IMG/VR virus record: IMGVR_UViG_3300028914_000059
Location: 1-64,000 of that record
Source of the DNA: a virus
Taxonomy: Duplodnaviria; Caudoviricetes
Strand: one strand, 5' to 3'
Length of the DNA: 64,000 bases
In this document: positions 4,652-14,390 of the stretch, piece by piece
Layout: every line of letters begins with the position of its first letter
How positions within the stretch are numbered: the first letter of the stretch is position 1
Program-made: the position numbers and the translations under genes
The notes under the pieces: generated by a model
The model's database searches: none
What the model was told of the DNA's origin: nothing
What the model saw: only the letters and a program-made list of their open reading frames with translations

Positions 4652-5809
4652 ATGAAGAAATTAGCCACTGTAAGAACGATAGCCAGCTTCACAGATATGG
4701 AAGGTTATGACAATGTATATATGGCCCATGTAGATGGCTGGCAGGCTATTGTAAGAAAAGAAGATTTTAACACCCCTGGTGAAAAAGTAATCTTTATAGA
4801 ACCAGGTGCCCAGCTTCCTGAAACTGAAGAATATAAGTTTCTGGAAAAACGTAAATACAGAATAAAGACAATGAAAATGCGTGGTAATCTGTCTCAGGGC
4901 CTGGTACTCAAATATACCGGTACTGAACCTGAAGGAACAGATCTTACCGAAAAAATGGGCATTATAGATTTTACAGAACAAGATGATGCCAAAGGATTCA
5001 ATCCAAACAGTGTCAGAAAGCCTAAGGGAATAGTAGGGTGGCTTATGAAATACTCTGCTACCAGATGGCTGGGAAAACTGTTTCTTCCTAAGAAAGTATC
5101 CGGCAAGTTCCCTGAATGGATACAGAAGACTGATGAGGAAAGAATCCAGAATTGCCCAAAAGTTCTCGATATAGAATCTGCTGACTGGTATGGCACAGAG
5201 AAGGTTGATGGACAGAGTGGCACCTGGGCTGTAAGAAAAGAAAAGGGATGGTTCGGAAGAACAAAGTATGATGAGATAGTATGCAGTCGTAACTTCAGAC
5301 TGAACGCTACAGGTGACTCTGGGAAATCCCAGATAGAGCTGAACAAAAAGTTGAAGATAACTGAACAGCTCAAGCACTGGCTACAGGAACATCCTGAAGA
5401 AGACTGGATTGTTCTGCAGGGTGAATGCATAGGTCCTAAGATCCAGGGTAATCCATATAAAGTTAAAGACTTCGAGCTTTATCTGTTCAACATAATTACC
5501 TCACGTCTTGGCAAGCTTGCTCCAGGAGCAGCTAAACAACTAACCTATGAAATGACACTCAGCTGTAACTTCCAGGATTATACTCAGTATACTCTCAAAT
5601 GGGTTCCTGACGTATTTCACGTCTCTGGTAAACTTTCAGACAAGACAGCTACCTGTTTCACAGATGTCAACCAGGCTTTAGAGTATGCCTCAGGATTCTC
5701 TGACCTCAATCGTGACACCTTGCGTGAAGGCGTGGTAGTAAGAAGTTATGAAAAGGGAATCTCCTTCAAGATTGTAAGTCCTGAATATCTAATAAAGAAA
5801 GGCGAATAA
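4652..5809 (+). CDS. ATP-dependent RNA ligase, Rnl2/DRB0094-like
   Basis: N-terminal KLATVRTI...DGWQ domain; nucleotidyltransferase motifs TEKVDG, QGECIG, REGVV, FKIVS. Confidence 0.85.
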   Translation: MKKLATVRTIASFTDMEGYDNVYMAHVDGWQAIVRKEDFNTPGEKVIFIEPGAQLPETEEYKFLEKRKYRIKTMKMRGNLSQGLVLKYTGTEPEGTDLTEKMGIIDFTEQDDAKGFNPNSVRKPKGIVGWLMKYSATRWLGKLFLPKKVSGKFPEWIQKTDEERIQNCPKVLDIESADWYGTEKVDGQSGTWAVRKEKGWFGRTKYDEIVCSRNFRLNATGDSGKSQIELNKKLKITEQLKHWLQEHPEEDWIVLQGECIGPKIQGNPYKVKDFELYLFNIITSRLGKLAPGAAKQLTYEMTLSCNFQDYTQYTLKWVPDVFHVSGKLSDKTATCFTDVNQALEYASGFSDLNRDTLREGVVVRSYEKGISFKIVSPEYLIKKGE

Positions 5810-8800
5810 TGGATAAAAATCCCTCTCTATCATACACTGAAACAGATATCAATCTGTTCATTTCGCGCTTCAGCACGGGCCACTGGGGGAGGCAGTGTGA
5901 GCTCAACAGAGCTAAAGCTGCCACCAGATATCAGACTGGAGACAAGTGTCACCTGAACAGTACTCTTGTAATAAACCATCTGAGCAGGAAAGAAACCCTG
6001 GCTGTGTATGTAATAACGGACGGTAATGAATGTAAATTTGCCGTCCTTGATTTCGACGCTAACTCAGCTGTAGTAAAGAGTCATATCTCTGACCCTGCTT
6101 CTGAAGAAGGCAAGAAAGCTTATCAGGAAGCTATGACAGAGGTGAAGGAAACTGTAGCCAATGCCATATCCGGATTAAGTTCTAGCCTTAAGATAAAGAG
6201 GGAACAGCTATTGCTAGAGTATAGCGGATCCAAGGGCTATCACATATGGATGTTCTTTGAAAATCCTGTCCCCACAAGATCAGCTTACAGAATGACTCAG
6301 GTCATTGCCAGAGAACTTGATCTGGAAGGGGTAGAACTCTTTCCTGGACAGGAGTATGCAGACTCAGAACATCCTGGTGATATGATAAAACTGCCACTTA
6401 GTATCAACAGAAAGACTGGCCTCTTCTGCGGATTCGTGGATGATAACTTCGAATATCTTGAAGACCAGTGGAAAGCTCTTAGAGAAGTTCAACCAATATC
6501 TAACACAGAATTGGAAAACATTCTTAAACTTCAGGAAATTCAGGTAAAGGAACCAGAATTCCAGGAAGGGGAAGACCTGAGTCTGCGTGGTGGCTCTATA
6601 GAAAGCATGTTCACTAAATGTGAAGCATTGAGTAATATACAGGCCAAGTCAAGATCAGTAGATCCTGATGCTGGTATTATCAATCTCACAAACGATGAAC
6701 GTGTCTGTATATTAAGCCTCCTGAAGCAGTTCGGTATTCCCGGAGCTAACAAGATACATGATCTGTTGAGCGAGTGTCACAACTATAGTAAGGAAACAAC
6801 AGACTATGCAATTAATAATACAGATATCAAGCCTATGCGGTGTGCCACCATGTATGCTCGTGGCATATGCCCGTATGAAAATCAGTGCGATGTTATAAGA
6901 GCCTGTCGTGGGACAAGTCCTATAAAGCTTAGCGGTTACTCCAAGAAGCAGAGTGTAATGCACAACCTGAAATCTCTGAGCCAGATAGAAAATACCATTC
7001 TGTGTGGCAAGGATATAACAGTTGACTTTACAGTCTCTGCTATTGTGAATGAGCCATATTACAGTCACACAAGGGCTACCTTTGCACCATGTTCTGAATC
7101 ATGCCCTAAGTTCGGGTTATGTGAACGTGAAGATAAGGAAACGTTTAAGACCGTAAACATACCTAAATATGACAAGATGCACATACAGGTATATGGTGAA
7201 AAAGATGAGAAGGTTATTGACTACACTAAGAAACAGCTGATAGGCTGTCTGTCTCCCAGAAGTCTGAAACTCTCAAGAGAAACGGAAAAGGTCCTTATTC
7301 AGCCATTCATGTGTGGTAACAGAGTTGACCTGATATCATCAAGTGTAGCAACGGAATCAGATAAGCCCGATCAGAACGCAGAAAACCTCAGTGAAGCAAA
7401 GGAATACAAGGACTATCTTGCATTCTGTATGCAGAACTCACTGGAAAGCTCCAAGTCCTACCGGGGTAAAGGTGTGGTAATGGCTAATCCTCAGAACCAG
7501 AACATAACTATAATGTTCACAGAGGTAACACCATTGACAGACCAGATAGACAACTTCCAGCTGGATGACGCAACAAAGGAAAGGCTGAACATCTACAGCT
7601 CAATGAGTATAGCTGAAAAGATAAATGATCTCAGAGACAACGTCCTGCACATATATAGCAGAGACAGTGTCATAACTGCGGTTCTTCTCAGCTTCTGTTC
7701 TCCCCTGACTCTTAACTTCAACGGTAATCCTTCTATGCGTGGCCGCCTTGATGTTCTTCTTGTAGGTGACTCAGGGCAGGCAAAGAGCTTGCTGGTAACC
7801 AGGATGTGCAGCTACAGTGGGGTTGGAAGAATAGCATCCTCCAACAGTACTACTGCAGGTCTTATAGGTGGTATTGACAGGACCAGCAACGGGTCATTCA
7901 TGAGCTGGGGCCTGCTGCCTAAATCAGACAGAGGTCTTGTATTCCTGGATGAAGTTCAGAATATATCCCCTGAAACAATGTCTCAGCTTAGAACCATACG
8001 AACCAACGGTGAAGCAGACGTAACAAAGATAAAAGGCGGGAAACATCCTGCCAGAATAAGATTGATATGTGCTGCCAACCCTATCCCAAACAACAGAACT
8101 GTTTCCGAGTTCAAGTATGGTATTCAAGCACTGGCTACTGTAATGCAGGCACCAGATTTGAGACGTTTCGATCTGGGATGTGTTCTTAGTGGTGCTGATA
8201 TTGATTCGGAGAAAATAAACGTTGAAAACTCTGACAAACCGCCTATATTGAAACCTGAAGTGCTGGCTGCCGCTTTCTATAGAATATGGAGTCTTACTCC
8301 GGACGATATAGTAATAAGTAAGGAGCTTACTTCCAAGATTCTAAAGAAGGCTGGGGAAATCAGTGACAAGTTCGATAACAACGTAGTCCCGTTATGCAAT
8401 ACAGCAGACATGAGAGAAAAGCTGTGCCGAATAGTAGTAAGTGCAGCAGGACTCCGTGGAGCATTCACAGACAATTATTCTAAGCTGGTTCCCGAACAGC
8501 AGGATCTGGACTTTGCTGTAAATCTGCTCGACCAGATATATGCTAACAGCTCTGCAAATATGGATGGATTAGCAGAAGAACGACGTAATGAATCTGAGCT
8601 TAGTGACGACCAGAAAAAGGCATTGGATGCCTGCCTGGCTACAGAGGAATATAAAGATATGTGGAATGTTATCTGCAAAATTGCAAGCATCAACTCAACG
8701 TTCTATATGTCTGATATAGGCGCCAGTCTTGGGCTCAGTGGAGTAGATACAGCCAAGATCCAGCAGAAGCTTATGGAATTCCAGATGATTGGAATGGGTA

Positions 8801-8910
8801 AGCAGAGCAGGAGCCTGGAGCTCAAGAGTAAACTGACAAAATACTACAACTATCATAGACAACAGGAGAAACTTGAAAATGACAAAGGACCTCAACCCAT
8901 TGCCTTCTGA
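5809..8910 (+). CDS. Primase-helicase fusion: AEP primase, PriL-like Cys domain and MCM-family helicase
   Basis: LDFD, SGSKGYH, IKLP (AEP); C..C..C..C..SP cluster; GDSGQAKS Walker A, FLDE Walker B, RRFD arginine finger. Confidence 0.85.
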   Translation: MDKNPSLSYTETDINLFISRFSTGHWGRQCELNRAKAATRYQTGDKCHLNSTLVINHLSRKETLAVYVITDGNECKFAVLDFDANSAVVKSHISDPASEEGKKAYQEAMTEVKETVANAISGLSSSLKIKREQLLLEYSGSKGYHIWMFFENPVPTRSAYRMTQVIARELDLEGVELFPGQEYADSEHPGDMIKLPLSINRKTGLFCGFVDDNFEYLEDQWKALREVQPISNTELENILKLQEIQVKEPEFQEGEDLSLRGGSIESMFTKCEALSNIQAKSRSVDPDAGIINLTNDERVCILSLLKQFGIPGANKIHDLLSECHNYSKETTDYAINNTDIKPMRCATMYARGICPYENQCDVIRACRGTSPIKLSGYSKKQSVMHNLKSLSQIENTILCGKDITVDFTVSAIVNEPYYSHTRATFAPCSESCPKFGLCEREDKETFKTVNIPKYDKMHIQVYGEKDEKVIDYTKKQLIGCLSPRSLKLSRETEKVLIQPFMCGNRVDLISSSVATESDKPDQNAENLSEAKEYKDYLAFCMQNSLESSKSYRGKGVVMANPQNQNITIMFTEVTPLTDQIDNFQLDDATKERLNIYSSMSIAEKINDLRDNVLHIYSRDSVITAVLLSFCSPLTLNFNGNPSMRGRLDVLLVGDSGQAKSLLVTRMCSYSGVGRIASSNSTTAGLIGGIDRTSNGSFMSWGLLPKSDRGLVFLDEVQNISPETMSQLRTIRTNGEADVTKIKGGKHPARIRLICAANPIPNNRTVSEFKYGIQALATVMQAPDLRRFDLGCVLSGADIDSEKINVENSDKPPILKPEVLAAAFYRIWSLTPDDIVISKELTSKILKKAGEISDKFDNNVVPLCNTADMREKLCRIVVSAAGLRGAFTDNYSKLVPEQQDLDFAVNLLDQIYANSSANMDGLAEERRNESELSDDQKKALDACLATEEYKDMWNVICKIASINSTFYMSDIGASLGLSGVDTAKIQQKLMEFQMIGMGKQSRSLELKSKLTKYYNYHRQQEKLENDKGPQPIAF

Positions 8911-9739
8911 CCGTGAGCAGGGAAGGGAAAACATAACCTTCAGCTCTCTGGGATACAGATACAAAGACTACTTGGAAATGGGGAAACTCAACTTCAAGTT
9001 TCCTCAGGGAACGCTCTTGAAAGTGTTCGATCTGTCTGGTGAAGAACTTGCAGCTATAGCTCAAGAGTGTGGTGTAATACCAGCCAATGGTATAAATCCA
9101 AACACTTCTGAGGGATTTCAGCTGTTATTGCTATGGATGTATCTGTCAGGACGACTTACATCATATGGCCTGAACCATGCGGCTAAAGTCGAGTATGTTG
9201 CATTAAAAGGTTCAGAGGAATATAATCATCGGGCAACCGCAGCATCGTTTGATGGTGAGCCTGCAAATTGGGTTAAACGACTCATTTCTATAATGGCATG
9301 GCCTAAGGAATTTAACTGGACATTAAATTATCTTGCCAAGGCTATGCTCTATGGAGATCAGGATGCCCGCTATTCTATACTGCAGAACCTGCTATGGAAC
9401 TGCGGAAAAAGGATAGTAAGAGATGATTATAAATCTCTGGATAAGATACTCGATGTGAATAAAATACTGTATAGAAAAGTCCGTGTCTGCAGAAGCAGAG
9501 TTAATCTATACTGTATGTGGGACAGGCTCAGAATGTTCGCCTGTCATATCTATAAAGGTAATAAGAATGACTTTCTGGAAGCTATGTGTGGGGCAGAAAA
9601 AGCCCTCAAGAGATTACACTCCTCTGCAGATATAGCTCCAGAAGGTCAGTTCGAAGGATTCAAACTACCAGGATATACATATATTCAGGAAAGAGAATCT
9701 GTAAGAAGTATAATGCGCGTCTTAAAGCTTGGCCAATAG
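8873..9739 (+). CDS. Hypothetical protein
   Basis: 288-aa ORF overlapping the helicase end and followed by a hairpin. Confidence 0.7.
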   Translation: MKMTKDLNPLPSDREQGRENITFSSLGYRYKDYLEMGKLNFKFPQGTLLKVFDLSGEELAAIAQECGVIPANGINPNTSEGFQLLLLWMYLSGRLTSYGLNHAAKVEYVALKGSEEYNHRATAASFDGEPANWVKRLISIMAWPKEFNWTLNYLAKAMLYGDQDARYSILQNLLWNCGKRIVRDDYKSLDKILDVNKILYRKVRVCRSRVNLYCMWDRLRMFACHIYKGNKNDFLEAMCGAEKALKRLHSSADIAPEGQFEGFKLPGYTYIQERESVRSIMRVLKLGQ

Positions 9740-9762
9740 CTAAGTTCTGTATGTACTGTTTA

Positions 9763-9797
9763 GAGACTCCGGTATTAACCGGGGTCTCACATATTTT
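9763..9797 (+). terminator. Probable terminator hairpin
   Basis: GAGACTCCGGT/ACCGGGGTCTC stem; weak T tract. Confidence 0.55.
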
Positions 9798-10149
9798 GTG
9801 AATTTTGATTCTTGAAAATTTTGTACTCAGTCGGGATTAATTTTTACCTAGTATTATTTCTACAAAAGGTTCTAGCCCAAGCTCATTTTTCGTATGAGTC
9901 GAGGAAAAAGGAAAAAATGGCATTTGTAAAACTATATAAGGTATATTATATAAAAAAAAATTAAAAAATAAAATAAAAAAATCTCTAATATACTTATATG
10001 GTTGTAAAATAGGGTAAAATTCCTCGTGCATAGAACTCAACTAATCTATTCTTTATTTTTTATCTGTTTCTTACCCTTTCGTAGTGGGTATAAGAGTATT
10101 GTTAGGCAATCTCGACCGAGTACAAAATTTTCCAAAACGCAAATTCACA
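9797..10149. repeat. Nested inverted repeats around an A-rich core (candidate replication origin)
   Basis: 42-bp arms 9797-9838 and 10108-10149 (35/42 match); CGAGGAA/TTCCTCG at 9900/10020; ~18-bp inner arms near 9929-9947 and 9985-10002; A-run core. Confidence 0.7.
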
Positions 10150-10264
10150 TTTACCCCTCTATATATGATGAACAGGCCCTGAGAAGGAGTTCGCTGTTAA
10201 TGGGCTTCTCAGAAGTCGTTTGTAAAAGTGGGTATTTTTCGAGTGAGAATTTTTCACTAAAAAA

Positions 10265-10298
10265 CATGAAGATTTTAAAATCTTCATGAAGATCTTCA
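10265..10298. promoter_or_regulatory. Perfect 24-bp palindrome with overlapping TGAAGAT/ATCTTCA half-sites
   Basis: CATGAAGATTTTAAAATCTTCATG at 10265-10288, then TGAAGATCTTCA at 10287-10298. Confidence 0.6.
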
Positions 10299-10314
10299 AG
10301 TTGGAGGTAGAATT

Positions 10315-10476
10315 GTGTACATCTGTCCTAGTTGTAAATATGTTGTTCTCTGCTGCCAGACGCTTTGCCCAAGGTGTGGCACAGAGATGGTTAAATTAGT
10401 TGGGCATTCACCCGCTGTTCCATCTAAAAAAATATACCCAAGGAGGAAAACAAATGGGAACAAAACTGGACGTTAG
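10315..10476 (+). CDS. Small zinc-ribbon protein (53 aa, absent from ORF track)
   Basis: GGAGG SD at 10303, GTG start, MYICPSCKYVVLCCQTLCPRCGTEM... Confidence 0.7.
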   Translation: MYICPSCKYVVLCCQTLCPRCGTEMVKLVGHSPAVPSKKIYPRRKTNGNKTGR

Positions 10477-12322
10477 ACTGACACCTATAACATCTAGCGT
10501 TAAGAATCTGCTAACTATCACGGAGTCCACTACAAAGCAGTACAAGTCATTTCTGTCTGCTATGATAACTGTCCCCTCCATGATACTAACAAAGACGGAG
10601 CTTTATAAGAAACCCGCAGACTTCTTTGATATGGCGGCACTTTACTGCTTGTCCAAGAATTGTAAGGTTTCTAATATATGGATGCTTCCAGACGAGGAAC
10701 ATATGGAAGTTGATATATATTATATAATGGGGACAGTTCAGGCTGTTCTCAGAGTAGACGTGTGCTCTCTGGTTCCGGAAGAATTACAGAAGGATAAGCA
10801 CAGTCTGATGACCTGGTATATGTATACTATTACATGTCTTACATATTTCAGTCAGGGCAGAACCTTCTTTGTCCACATAGATGACGACGAAAAGCTGAAG
10901 GCTGCTCAGCAGAGATATGCTGAAGGCAAGTGCGTTCTTCCATGTAATGAATATACTTACCTGTTATGTCTGGGTGATATGCCTAAAGGTGATTTCAGCA
11001 TATCTGATAATCTGTTACAACCTGCTGGGGCCGGAGATGGCTTCCTGACAGTAAAGACTGCAAACAAGCCGATAACAGAATTACCTGCGGTTGATCTTAA
11101 TGGCCTGGAAGACAGATTGTATGATCTCTTCGTTTATCAGATGGAAACCCAGAAGCTGGTAGGGGCAGACACAGAAACTACCGGTCTGGATATCTTCACG
11201 GCAGATCTGGTCAGCCTGGGGCTCTGCTTTAATACCAGAATAGGCTTCTATGTAAGCGTGAAACATACACCTCCTCGTCAGAGGAAGCTGGTTGACTCGT
11301 CTACAGGATTTATTCCTGCTCTTGTATCTCTCCGCAGGAGATTTGAGTTGGCAGGTGGTCTTCAGTATGTAGGTAAACGCGGCGACTCCACTAAGAACAT
11401 ATCCCATGATATGCTAATGGTAATAACCAACAAGCTGAAGACTATGGATTCGATATGGCACAATGCCAAATTCGACTTTAACATAATGCTAAGCAATACC
11501 GGTATCAGACTGCCAATATGGCTGGATACAATGATAGCTCACTATGTTACCAGACCTGGAAATGGGATCAAGGGTGACATGCGTCGTAGTTTGAAGATAG
11601 TAGCCTGTAAAGAACTGGGCGTGCCAGGGTGGGCTATCGACATAGTAAAGTGCCAGGCCGAAGACAAAGATCTGGTGGCAGCATACAACGCCCGTGATAC
11701 TTGCTATATGCTTGGTCTCGCTTTTGTTATGGCTCCTGATATAGCTGAACATTATGACCTCATATTCAATATAGAAATGAAGTACTTACCTATATTGTGT
11801 ATGGCTGAACGCATAGGAATCAGGCTTGATGTAAAACAGCTCAAAGCTATTGAAACTGACCTGAGGGCAAAAGCCGATGCTATTAAAGCAGAATTCGAGG
11901 CTATGTTTGATCCTAAGGAAAAGTTCAACATCAACTCTAATGATATGCTGAAGGATTTGTTCTACAACAGATGGGGGATTATCCCGCCAAGGAAATGTAA
12001 GACATGTGGTGTTCGTCACCAGCAGCCTCATTTCAAGTGTGTAAATCCTCAGTGTTCTGAGTTTAATAAGGAGGATTCAGCCCCTATGGAATTCACAACA
12101 CCATCTGGTGAACCAAGCATGGATAAGTATGTTCTGGATGCATTGATGCAGGCTGGTGTAGAAAAGGCCAAAGATCTTAAGGAGTATAAACTTGCTAATA
12201 AGTTGATTACTTCTTACTGTACTCTTGATAAGATGATCAGTCCTTACGATAGGATGATACATCCACAATATAATCAAGCACAAACTGAGACGGGGAGGCT
12301 TAGTTCCTCCAAACCAAACTTT
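10454..12322 (+). CDS. polA: DNA polymerase family A, exon 1 (3'-5' exonuclease and thumb)
   Basis: AGGAGG SD; DTET, HNAKFD, YNARD exonuclease motifs; ends TGRLSSSKPNF. Confidence 0.9.
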
Positions 12323-12416
12323 CAATTATATGCCTAAATTGATGGAAGTTTTAAAATATGGTGAATTGCTGGAACCTCCTAAAGACTCTATACTACAGCA
12401 AAATTAGAAATGATAC

Positions 12417-12480: not shown

Positions 12481-13161
12481 ATGGACAATCAGCAGCTACA
12501 ATCCTTAACTGAAAGAAAAATGTTATTATCCAAGAATGCTTATTTTGGTGATGGTACTTTATGGAAGCATCCTGAGTGTAAGAATTATAAAGTTATTTAT
12601 ACTTCTACAACACCAGAACTGTTGGAAGCAAAAAGAATTGTATGTCCAGAGATATTTAAAACTGGTGTTAAATTTCAGGATTTAACAAAGCATGCCAGTG
12701 GAAGGTATCCAAATGCCAAGCCTTTATATAGACTAGCATCCACTGTGGATTCTATAATAACAGATGTTAAAAATACTCCGCATTCTGTCCTTTTAGAATC
12801 TCTTACTTTGGACGACCTGGCTTTATGGTATCTGGATGACGGGTCTACTATCTTAAGGAAAGATTCGAATTACGGATATACGAGATCTTTCCTATTTATA
12901 GGTAATGCCTGCAACTCAGATGAGTATACTGAGATATTCAAATCTAGAATAAGCTCTATATTTAATACTGATATTATAGGCACTGTAAAAAGACATACTC
13001 CGTTCACCTCTGACAATAATAAAGTGTGGGTAATCCCTATAAACATAGCTAGAGTAATACTTAAAGAAGCTTCTAAGTATAATGTACTAAAACATAAATT
13101 TCCAGAATGGATTGAGTTCAGAGATCATTCCCACGGGGAAGTAGGGCTCAAGGGTAAATGA
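12481..13161 (+). CDS. Intron-encoded LAGLIDADG homing endonuclease
   Basis: AYFGDGTL and LALWYLDDG motifs; located inside the intron. Confidence 0.8.
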   Translation: MDNQQLQSLTERKMLLSKNAYFGDGTLWKHPECKNYKVIYTSTTPELLEAKRIVCPEIFKTGVKFQDLTKHASGRYPNAKPLYRLASTVDSIITDVKNTPHSVLLESLTLDDLALWYLDDGSTILRKDSNYGYTRSFLFIGNACNSDEYTEIFKSRISSIFNTDIIGTVKRHTPFTSDNNKVWVIPINIARVILKEASKYNVLKHKFPEWIEFRDHSHGEVGLKGK

Positions 13162-13268
13162 GTCCGAAGCGCCATAGCTGGTGGAGGAAACTCCACCTCC
13201 ATGATATGATCCGACCTTACTGGAAACAGTAAGAGAGTATTCAACCCTGAGTACTCGTAACACTAGTG

Positions 13269-14390
13269 CAACAATTACCAAAGAAGGCTGGTAAGTATAT
13301 GAGAAAATGCTTTACTGGTAAACCAGGTTATTGCATAATCTCTGCAGACTATGCCGGCCAGGAAATAAGAATACTTGCAGCTCATACAAGGGACGAAAAG
13401 CTTATCAGAGCTTATAATCCATGCTATCACTGCGAGCACAACCAAGGAGGTAAAGGCCTGTATAAAGTGCCAAACTGCCCATTCGAAGATCATAGTGAAG
13501 GTTCTCAGTGCAATACTGTTGATATTCATAGTTATATAACCAAGCAGGTCTATCACGACAAGATCAATGTCCCAATAGAACAGATCAAGAATGTTCCGGA
13601 GTTCAACAGAATGAGAAGTATCTGTAAATCTGTCACTTTTGGTCTGGCATATGGAAGTACTGCTGTAGGTCTGGCTAACTCTACCGGTATACCTCTGAAT
13701 GAAGCCAAGGAAGTCATGCACACATACTTCAGTACTTTCCCAACTATTAAGGATTACATTGAGAAATGTCAGTTGTATGTGGACAAGTATGGCGAGCTGG
13801 TGGATATGGTAGGCAGAAAGAGACTCTTTAAGTTTGCCGGTTGGAGCATACCAAGCAAGGCAAATACTTATTATTCTGGCACAGCTGAAAATGAACGCGG
13901 GTTCCATTATCCTGAAAGGATGTTTGCCAAGGAAGTAAGAAAGAATCTCAGGGAAGCTACCAACTTCCCTATCCAGGGATTGGCCGCCTCAATGACAAAG
14001 ATAGCTGCTATAAATATCGACAGGATGTTCCGTGAGGCGCAGCTGGATGCGTGGTTGATTGAGTTCGTCCATGATGAAGTTGTCGTTACCTGCCCTAAGG
14101 ACGAGGACACTATCAGACGAGTCATAGATATAATCACAGAGGGAATGGAGAAGAGTATCGACATTCCATCTCACTGTATAAAGAATCATCCATTAGGGTG
14201 GTCATGGCCTGATTATATTCCTATGAAGGTTGAAGTAGAAGTTGGCGATTCTTATGGTTCTATCATGGAGCCAGAAGAGTATTACAAGCAACTGAACGCT
14301 GAAGAAGCTGCTCTGGCAATTCCAGTCACACATGAAGTAGAATTGCTTGACGACGACGAAAGTGAACAGTTCGGTGTAGAGACTATATAA
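13269..14390 (+). CDS. polA: DNA polymerase family A, exon 2 (palm and fingers)
   Basis: Motif A ADYAGQEIR, motif B RSICKSVTFGLAYG, NFPIQG, motif C VHDE. Confidence 0.9.
   Translation, partial: QQLPKKAGKYMRKCFTGKPGYCIISADYAGQEIRILAAHTRDEKLIRAYNPCYHCEHNQGGKGLYKVPNCPFEDHSEGSQCNTVDIHSYITKQVYHDKINVPIEQIKNVPEFNRMRSICKSVTFGLAYGSTAVGLANSTGIPLNEAKEVMHTYFSTFPTIKDYIEKCQLYVDKYGELVDMVGRKRLFKFAGWSIPSKANTYYSGTAENERGFHYPERMFAKEVRKNLREATNFPIQGLAASMTKIAAINIDRMFREAQLDAWLIEFVHDEVVVTCPKDEDTIRRVIDIITEGMEKSIDIPSHCIKNHPLGWSWPDYIPMKVEVEVGDSYGSIMEPEEYYKQLNAEEAALAIPVTHEVELLDDDESEQFGVETI

Follow-up and report, generated by a model that had tools for sequence, protein, structure and literature searches.

The window analysed here comprises bases 1-64000 of a 180,070-bp IMG/VR record of an uncultured rumen phage. 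Within it lies a mirror-symmetric, non-coding stretch of 353 bp (9797-10149; element A), which a model that saw only the letters of the DNA had picked out as a candidate replication origin (the sequence-only reading). Element A is surrounded by a + strand replication block and, as that reading had it, occupies the largest non-coding gap of the window (9740-10314, 575 nt; the runner-up has 291 nt). The short open reading frames (ORFs) within this gap have TTG or GTG starts and low-complexity products, and are not credible as genes. The locus, read from left to right, is made up as follows.

Ahead of the primase-MCM gene, + strand: PD-(D/E)XK nuclease and RNA ligase
5809..8910, + strand: fusion of an archaeo-eukaryotic primase (AEP) and an MCM helicase, 1033 aa (PF22548, 5.7e-30; PF00493, MCM P-loop, 7.9e-16)
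8873..9739, + strand: 288-aa ORF with no family assigned
9740-10314: non-coding gap of 575 nt that holds element A
9794..9806, + strand: left end box of element A, TTTTGTGAATTTT, a variant of the 13-mer AAATGTGAATTTG
9797..9838: left outer arm, 42 nt (inverted-repeat scan and genome-wide rarity)
9900..9906: left middle arm, CGAGGAA, whose counterpart in paralog B (below) is GTAGGGATT
9924..9948: left inner arm or box, TTGTAAAACTATATAAGGTATATTA
9942..9982: tract of 41 bp, 100% A/T and A-rich on the + strand, a candidate DNA-unwinding element
9976..10009, - strand: right inner box, a 34-nt block 94% identical to 111399-111432 in paralog B, in opposite orientation
10020..10026: right middle arm, TTCCTCG
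10108..10149: right outer arm, 42 nt
10140..10152, - strand: right end box, AAATGTGAATTTG
10315..10476, + strand: 53-aa Zn-ribbon ORF, the first gene past element A
After the Zn-ribbon ORF, + strand: split family A polymerase, helicase and RuvC-like protein

All three nested arm pairs of the sequence-only reading were recovered. The outer arms are complementary at 35 of 42 positions (83%) with 269 nt between them, the middle arms at 7 of 7, and the inner arms, at ~9924-9948 and 9985-10009, at 82% over a length of 17 nt. All of them centre on the A-rich tract, the outer pair at 9973, the middle pair at 9963 and the inner pair at 9966. The inner boxes have the form ACAaCtATATAAGtATATTA. We scanned all 180 kb of the genome for inverted repeats of 42 nt, ungapped, within 600 nt and with 34 or more matches. 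Only two pairs were returned, the outer arms of element A and a pair at 65655-65836 (37/42, with a 98-nt loop) that belongs to a retron-like hairpin array. The symmetry of element A is far above chance.

A search of the genome with element A revealed one diverged paralog, element B, at 111274-111633 (7275-7634 in L005), outside the window. Element B spans 360 bp, begins with TGTGAATTT and ends with AAATTCACA as element A does, and has an A/T core between inverted boxes of the form CTATATAAGTATATTA. The middle arms are unlike between the two copies yet complementary within each, being GTAGGGATT and GAATCCCTAC in B. The 34-nt inner block to the right of the A core recurs to the left of the B core at 94.1% identity (blastn, E 1.4e-8), and the right end of A matches the left end of B at 95% identity over 20 nt; in sequence terms, the two elements have opposite orientations. 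The 13-mer AAATGTGAATTTG is common to all four half-elements, which align with one another at 46-62% and look like four copies of a ~175-bp unit, arranged head to head in two pairs. The 10-mer AAATGTGAAT has four occurrences in the genome: one at the right end of A, one at each end of B and one lying 165 bp upstream of B. This confinement to A and the B locus, together with the two paralogs and their A/T cores, is the pattern of a repeated-box, multi-copy origin of the SPP1 kind. Extra TGTGAAT boxes lie upstream of B at 110967 and 111109. A (~10 kb) and B (~111.4 kb) are 101.5 kb apart, which on a circular map would put them on roughly opposite sides.

By calculation, no DNA in the genome melts more readily than the two cores. 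Only two 40-bp windows in the 180 kb are pure A/T, and these are the cores of A and B, which also hold ranks 1 and 2 for A/T content in windows of 40, 60 and 100 bp. Nearest-neighbour duplex stability over 60 bp is -55.7 kcal/mol for A and -52.5 kcal/mol for B, compared with a genome mean of -78.0 kcal/mol (standard deviation (sd) 4.9), which places A 4.5 sd and B 5.2 sd from the mean. The B core is the least stable 60-bp window genome-wide and the A core the second; the third least stable tract adjoins a triplet of DnaA boxes at B.

Paralog B is embedded in ~950 bp of non-coding DNA at the main switch of the genome from - strand virion genes to + strand genes. Ten exact DnaA boxes (TTATCCACA) occur in the genome, and six of them flank B in two groups.

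110823-110853: three DnaA boxes left of B, at 11-bp spacing
111773-111804: three DnaA boxes right of B, inside the start of the next gene

A cluster of DnaA boxes beside an unwinding element, the arrangement typical of a bacterial oriC, is thus found at B and not at A. Three consensus DnaA boxes at exact 11-bp spacing are present in at least 120 IMG/VR viral contigs (L136-L215), so phased triplets appear to be widespread in viruses or prophages, and an oriC-like prediction has been published for phage G (PMC12484599). The triplets near B are therefore a feature of a known kind. What is new is the link between this DnaA-box locus and element A, which are kin. The proteins flanking B have no Atlas, PHROG or Pfam match. 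ARAGORN places seven transfer RNA genes (Met, Tyr, Ser, Lys, His, Cys and Leu) at 11124-14981 of L005 (~115.1-119.0 kb), in a cluster that begins ~3.5 kb to the right of B.

Symmetry, paralogy, a box motif confined to two loci, duplex instability, the DnaA context of B and constraint among strains (below) are directly supported, and they lead us to a tentative interpretation, to which we give somewhat less than an even chance: element A is a cis-acting DNA element, a replication-origin module, and not a gene or an RNA. The location of A is consistent with such a role. The primase-MCM gene ends 0.9 kb upstream with a single gene, the 288-aa ORF, in between; this lends the sequence-only reading some support and agrees with the usual layout of an origin placed just downstream of an initiator-helicase gene, as in SaPI and SCCmec (PMC7581432).

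The same symmetry could in principle serve an RNA, and the sequence-only reading had offered a structured non-coding RNA, possibly a reverse transcriptase template supplied in trans, as its alternative. Folded as RNA, element A is far more stable than its shuffles (z of -4.8 on one strand and -5.1 on the other), and folded as DNA it lies 3.5 sd below them; paralog B folds likewise. The middle arms, different in A and B and complementary in each, would also suit a ~350-nt RNA, although this comparison involves two paralogs only and a DNA palindrome predicts the same. Both strands fold equally well, however, and among the arm mismatches G-T is no more frequent than A-C, whichever strand is considered. 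Because of this equality and the lack of wobble bias, the symmetry is most readily understood at the level of the DNA. No Rfam match was found for element A, even at E values up to 1. The transcription signals around the element, given next, point the same way.

9763..9795, + strand: intrinsic terminator, an 11-pair stem followed by a T-run, which closes the operon of the primase-MCM gene and the 288-aa ORF (terminator scan)
10087..10094, + strand: promoter-class box GGTATAAG, scoring 12.2 on a position weight matrix (PWM), under the training range of 15.2-29.5
10265..10288, - strand: perfect 12/12 palindrome CATGAAGATTTT/AAAATCTTCATG followed by a T-run on the - strand, just upstream of the start of the Zn-ribbon ORF and PolA

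The terminator ends 2 nt ahead of the left outer arm, and the sole promoter-class box lies in the right half of the element, so a transcript from ~10100 would hold the right outer arm only and none of the left arms. In the one metatranscriptome run, two 151-nt contigs were found, both within gene 8873-9739; this is a weak point against an RNA, and we do not count the uncovered element as evidence. Taken together, these findings leave a structured RNA, or a template acting in trans, highly improbable.

The octamer GGTATAAG has 29 copies in the genome, all on the + strand, 23 of them intergenic, mostly just upstream of + strand genes and often with TG ~5-6 nt downstream. Those in the window lie at 1525, 10087, 14951, 15875 and 50621. 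From its positions the octamer appears to mark a phage-specific promoter class, and the copy at 10087 probably restarts transcription of the Zn-ribbon ORF and PolA. A second copy close to one of the elements is found at 111677, 44 nt past the right end of B. In the relatives L056 and L059, GGTATAAG lies on the same strand as the primase gene. The palindrome at 10265-10288 looks like a - strand terminator, or an operator, and together with the terminator at 9763-9795 it provides terminator-like hairpins that face element A from both sides. Strains differ by 1-nt indels at 10264-10272, in the region of this palindrome. Other assignments were rejected. The inner boxes score ~0 on the PWM of the GGTATAAG promoter class, and no sigma70-type promoter was found inside element A at the scan threshold. 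A bidirectional terminator was ruled out by the 36-nt loop between the inner arms, and a protelomerase, Xer or att-type site by a core that is not itself symmetric and by the absence of a linked recombinase.

Next, we asked how element A behaves among strains and relatives. Near-identical sequence is present in cattle gut, goat gut and bioreactor metagenome runs, and strong Shine-Dalgarno sites suggest a Firmicute host. The element is kept in strains ~97% identical, represented by contigs of three DNA runs from different studies, and none of the contigs in these three runs skips it. Non-coding pieces covering 9923-10239 and 9878-10318 diverge by 1.6% and 4.3%, whereas coding pieces diverge by 3-5.8% among the same strains; in gene 8873-9739, 28 of the 30 variants listed fall at third codon positions. 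By a rough estimate (40 of 149 strain variants were listed, and metagenome contigs can mix strains), the rate of change in element A is several times lower than at synonymous sites, a sign of constraint.

Beyond the strains, a metagenome scan provided one usable relative, L057, the only one with DNA downstream of its primase-MCM gene. Its primase-MCM protein is 41% identical to the one described here, its PolA 45% and its homolog of the 288-aa ORF 29% (E 4e-24), and the gene order is the same: primase-MCM, 288-aa homolog, Zn-ribbon ORF, PolA. As for conservation, which the sequence-only reading had named as a check, element A is kept in near-identical strains and missing at the same junction in L057. 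Judged from this comparison, the 575-bp block of terminator, palindrome and promoter is lineage-specific, and an insertion is the more likely origin of the block because the 288-aa homolog and the Zn-ribbon gene are tightly coupled in L057. Other relatives, at 40-65% identity, were found in Logan and ENA (P0002, P0004-P0008). Protein scans of IMG/VR with the 288-aa ORF, with primase-MCM alone or as an alignment, and with a 323-aa ORF beside B detected no close relative, and a scan of GTDB genomes returned partial matches of at most 37% identity.

The polymerase genes downstream have features of their own. A Cys-rich Zn-ribbon ORF (CPxC...CPRC) lies directly upstream of PolA both here and in L057 (~6599-6745). 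The family A DNA polymerase is divided exactly at position 128/129 of the Pfam profile into parts at 10400-12337 and 13266-14390, with a 226-aa ORF of no family match (12481-13161) between them, consistent with the insertion of an intron or homing endonuclease. The N-terminal part of the L057 polymerase stops at the same point.

The arrangement of signals at 9740-10314 raises the possibility that the gap is a transcription-boundary or regulatory cassette, in which a phage regulator would bind the operator-like palindrome, and the promoter, together with the terminator, would set when the PolA operon is transcribed. Paralog B would then serve gene 111740, and the A/T core would be an UP-element or bendable DNA that allows the end boxes to loop. 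Besides the terminator and the GGTATAAG boxes in A and near B, this explanation draws on the L057 operon, which is unbroken at this point, so that the block brings in a new transcription boundary, and on the palindrome at 10265-10288, which overlaps a weak sigma70-like match. Several features do not fit. No such palindrome accompanies the remaining 27 GGTATAAG sites, and the genome-wide scan found no further long-range inverted repeat outside the retron-like array. The promoter box is placed differently in A and B, and although A is inverted relative to B, both boxes read rightward. The inner boxes do not resemble promoters on the PWM, and a cassette leaves both the two tracts of lowest stability and the DnaA-box clusters unexplained. 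We regard it as an unlikely explanation.

An insertion without a function for the phage, either a palindrome resembling a miniature inverted-repeat transposable element (MITE) or an old inverted duplication, would explain why the ends resemble terminal inverted repeats, why there are two copies only, why the element is missing at the junction in L057 and why the four half-elements look like copies of one unit. Neither copy has the target-site duplication expected of a MITE, however, and no transposase is encoded nearby. A mobile element would be expected in multiple near-identical copies, and these were not seen; no contig of the three strain runs skips the element, and divergence among strains is well under the synonymous rate. 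The copies are only 46-62% alike, yet retain a few blocks at 94-95%, which argues for selection on the boxes and not for recent transposition. Three pattern scans of IMG/VR yielded no look-alike. The scan with the 18-nt inner block gave 14 matches, two of them also with an end-box-like word; L019 was rejected as coding AT-rich DNA, L010 because it has no resemblance to the element beyond the 18-mer, and three matches to the end-box pair at the right spacing were attributed to chance, as they have no A/T core. Absence from the distant L057 neither proves nor excludes mobility. Overall, we consider a selfish or relic insertion distinctly unlikely.

If element A is an origin module, an initiator should act on it, and the sequence-only reading had nominated the product of 8873..9739. 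This nomination gained nothing from our analysis. The protein has no Pfam, PHROG or PDB match, its AlphaFold model is unusable (mean confidence, pLDDT, of 45.8), and it has a homolog in L057, which lacks the element. The description of the locus as archaeal-style fared no better, since the winged-helix domain of Orc1/Cdc6 (PF09079, Cdc6_C) was unmatched in the 180-kb genome although controls in four archaea matched. Among the initiator families searched, Cdc6_C, Bac_DnaA, Phage_rep_org_N and DnaB_2 all had no match in the genome. As no dedicated initiator family was found, the primase-MCM fusion is left as the candidate initiator; nothing else in the genome is recognisable as a possible self-loading helicase of this kind.

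A number of results weigh against an origin at A. In L057, ~10 nt separate the 288-aa homolog from the Zn-ribbon gene and there is no element A, which suggests that it was not ancestral at 9740-10314 or has been lost in L057. We identified no protein that binds the boxes of element A. No exact DnaA box occurs within 5 kb of it; the nearest boxes with one mismatch, at 9436 and 9454, are inside coding sequence. The GC-skew check proposed in the sequence-only reading showed no cumulative extremum at element A, and the rise in skew at third codon positions (GC3) across it, from -0.005 to +0.143, does not exceed the block-to-block scatter. The global minimum of the cumulative curve is at ~112 kb, at B, but GC skew tracks gene strand genome-wide, so this minimum is confounded, and we dropped both GC and GC3 skew as tests of an origin. 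In herpesviruses, AT-richness plus palindromes predicts origins with a positive predictive value of 17-25% (PMC1904460), and for a non-coding region of phage T5, in which DnaA boxes accompany nested palindromes, a role as origin has been disputed by its author (bioRxiv 10.1101/866236). The absence from L057, the weak predictive value and the possibility that the T5 region serves injection are among the reasons why our confidence in an origin module stays below even. Of the earlier proposal, the DNA-level symmetry and the unwinding-type core stand, now joined by a paralog flanked by DnaA boxes, whereas the skew, the initiator and the archaeal label do not.

The T5 precedent also suggests a DNA site with no part in replication, such as an injection stop or anchor, or a paired site for partition or recombination. 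In the T5 injection-stop (iss) region, nested inverted repeats occur together with a duplicated module and with DnaA boxes (bioRxiv 10.1101/866236), and the roughly opposite positions of A and B on a circular map, in opposite orientation, would suit a paired site. Element A, however, has no DnaA box, and its core is not itself palindromic as protelomerase or Xer-type sites are. No recombinase or partition gene is linked to A or B. The 180,070-bp record is linear and without end repeats, at an estimated completeness of 93%, and does not define the physical ends of the genome. We therefore judge such a site very unlikely.

Returning to the origin module, we can outline how it might operate; each step, from the binding of a protein through melting to the loading of a helicase, is inferred, and so is origin activity itself. 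A sequence-specific factor, either primase-MCM itself or an unrecognised small protein, would bind the inverted boxes on both sides; the 41-bp A/T tract would melt; two MCM-type hexamers would load head to head; and the fused AEP primase would prime both leading strands. Element A would have been gained in this lineage as a terminator-palindrome-promoter block. With its DnaA boxes, B appears the better candidate for a primary origin assisted by host DnaA, and A, which has no DnaA boxes, would act as a secondary origin or as an auxiliary site. A more specific proposal is that a single palindromic module gave the phage a system of two origins, with B gated by host DnaA through the flanking box clusters, A independent of DnaA and next to the replication genes, and both loading the MCM-primase head to head; we think this improbable.

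AEP-MCM primase-helicases are common in phages and prophages, and we found no description of the DNA sites at which they initiate. A and B form a matched pair of candidates, with a sharp melting tract and boxes that are short and testable; host DnaA boxes are present at one and absent from the other. If the two-origin proposal is true, A and B would be the first cis elements defined for these widespread replicases and a bacterial-virus parallel to the loading of MCM double hexamers at symmetric origins. Origin activity would also make them a system for studying the loading of an MCM-type helicase in a bacterial cell, a possible switch of the phage between host-dependent and self-sufficient initiation, and the duplication and movement of origins in large phage genomes. 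Should the element do no more than mark a transcription boundary, or be a selfish palindrome, it would be unremarkable.

Archaeal oriC has inverted origin recognition box (ORB) elements around a DNA-unwinding element and employs Orc1/Cdc6 and MCM. Element A is similar in architecture only, with inverted boxes flanking an A/T unwinding element, and in having an MCM-type helicase (PF00493) nearby. It differs in that Orc1/Cdc6 is absent here and paralog B has bacterial DnaA boxes.

Self-loading helicases offer another comparison. For Rep of Staphylococcus aureus pathogenicity islands (SaPI), Cch2 of the staphylococcal cassette chromosome SCCmec, the large T antigen of simian virus 40 (SV40) and papillomavirus E1, the origin lies just downstream of the helicase gene, the helicase binds its repeats in the form of two hexamers, and a primase is either fused or encoded nearby (PMC7581432). 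In those cases a compact array of iterons adjoins the gene, whereas element A is separated from primase-MCM by one gene, has boxes 340 bp apart and is missing from L057. The T5 iss, also an untranslated region of large size, in which nested inverted repeats and palindromes accompany an inverted, duplicated module and DnaA boxes (bioRxiv 10.1101/866236), is located in the terminal repeat and has eight paired DnaA boxes inside its repeats; here the DnaA boxes are outside the palindrome and at B only, and B is mid-genome at the switch of gene strand.

HSV-1 (herpes simplex virus 1) has three origins, and in OriS inverted boxes surround an AT spacer (PMC12543377). OriS and OriL resemble A and B in that inverted boxes flank an AT-rich spacer, which is destabilised when the origin-binding helicase UL9 binds, in their nested hairpin potential and in the presence of several related copies (PMC12543377). 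The HSV-1 origins are far shorter, however: the OriS oligonucleotide used for cryogenic electron microscopy is ~80 nt long (PMC12543377), compared with 353 bp for element A. The box sequences are unrelated, and the HSV-1 initiator is a superfamily 2 helicase, whereas the candidate here is an AEP-MCM fusion.

The origins of Bacillus phage SPP1 each have initiator boxes beside an AT-rich region. SPP1 has an origin-binding protein, G38P, while the four initiator families searched here had no match, and it replicates independently of DnaA, while B is flanked by DnaA boxes. As for the layout of the genome, SPP1 has two origins, oriL and oriR, 32.1 kb apart (PMC3561973), and A and B would likewise be two copies of an origin set far apart in one phage genome.

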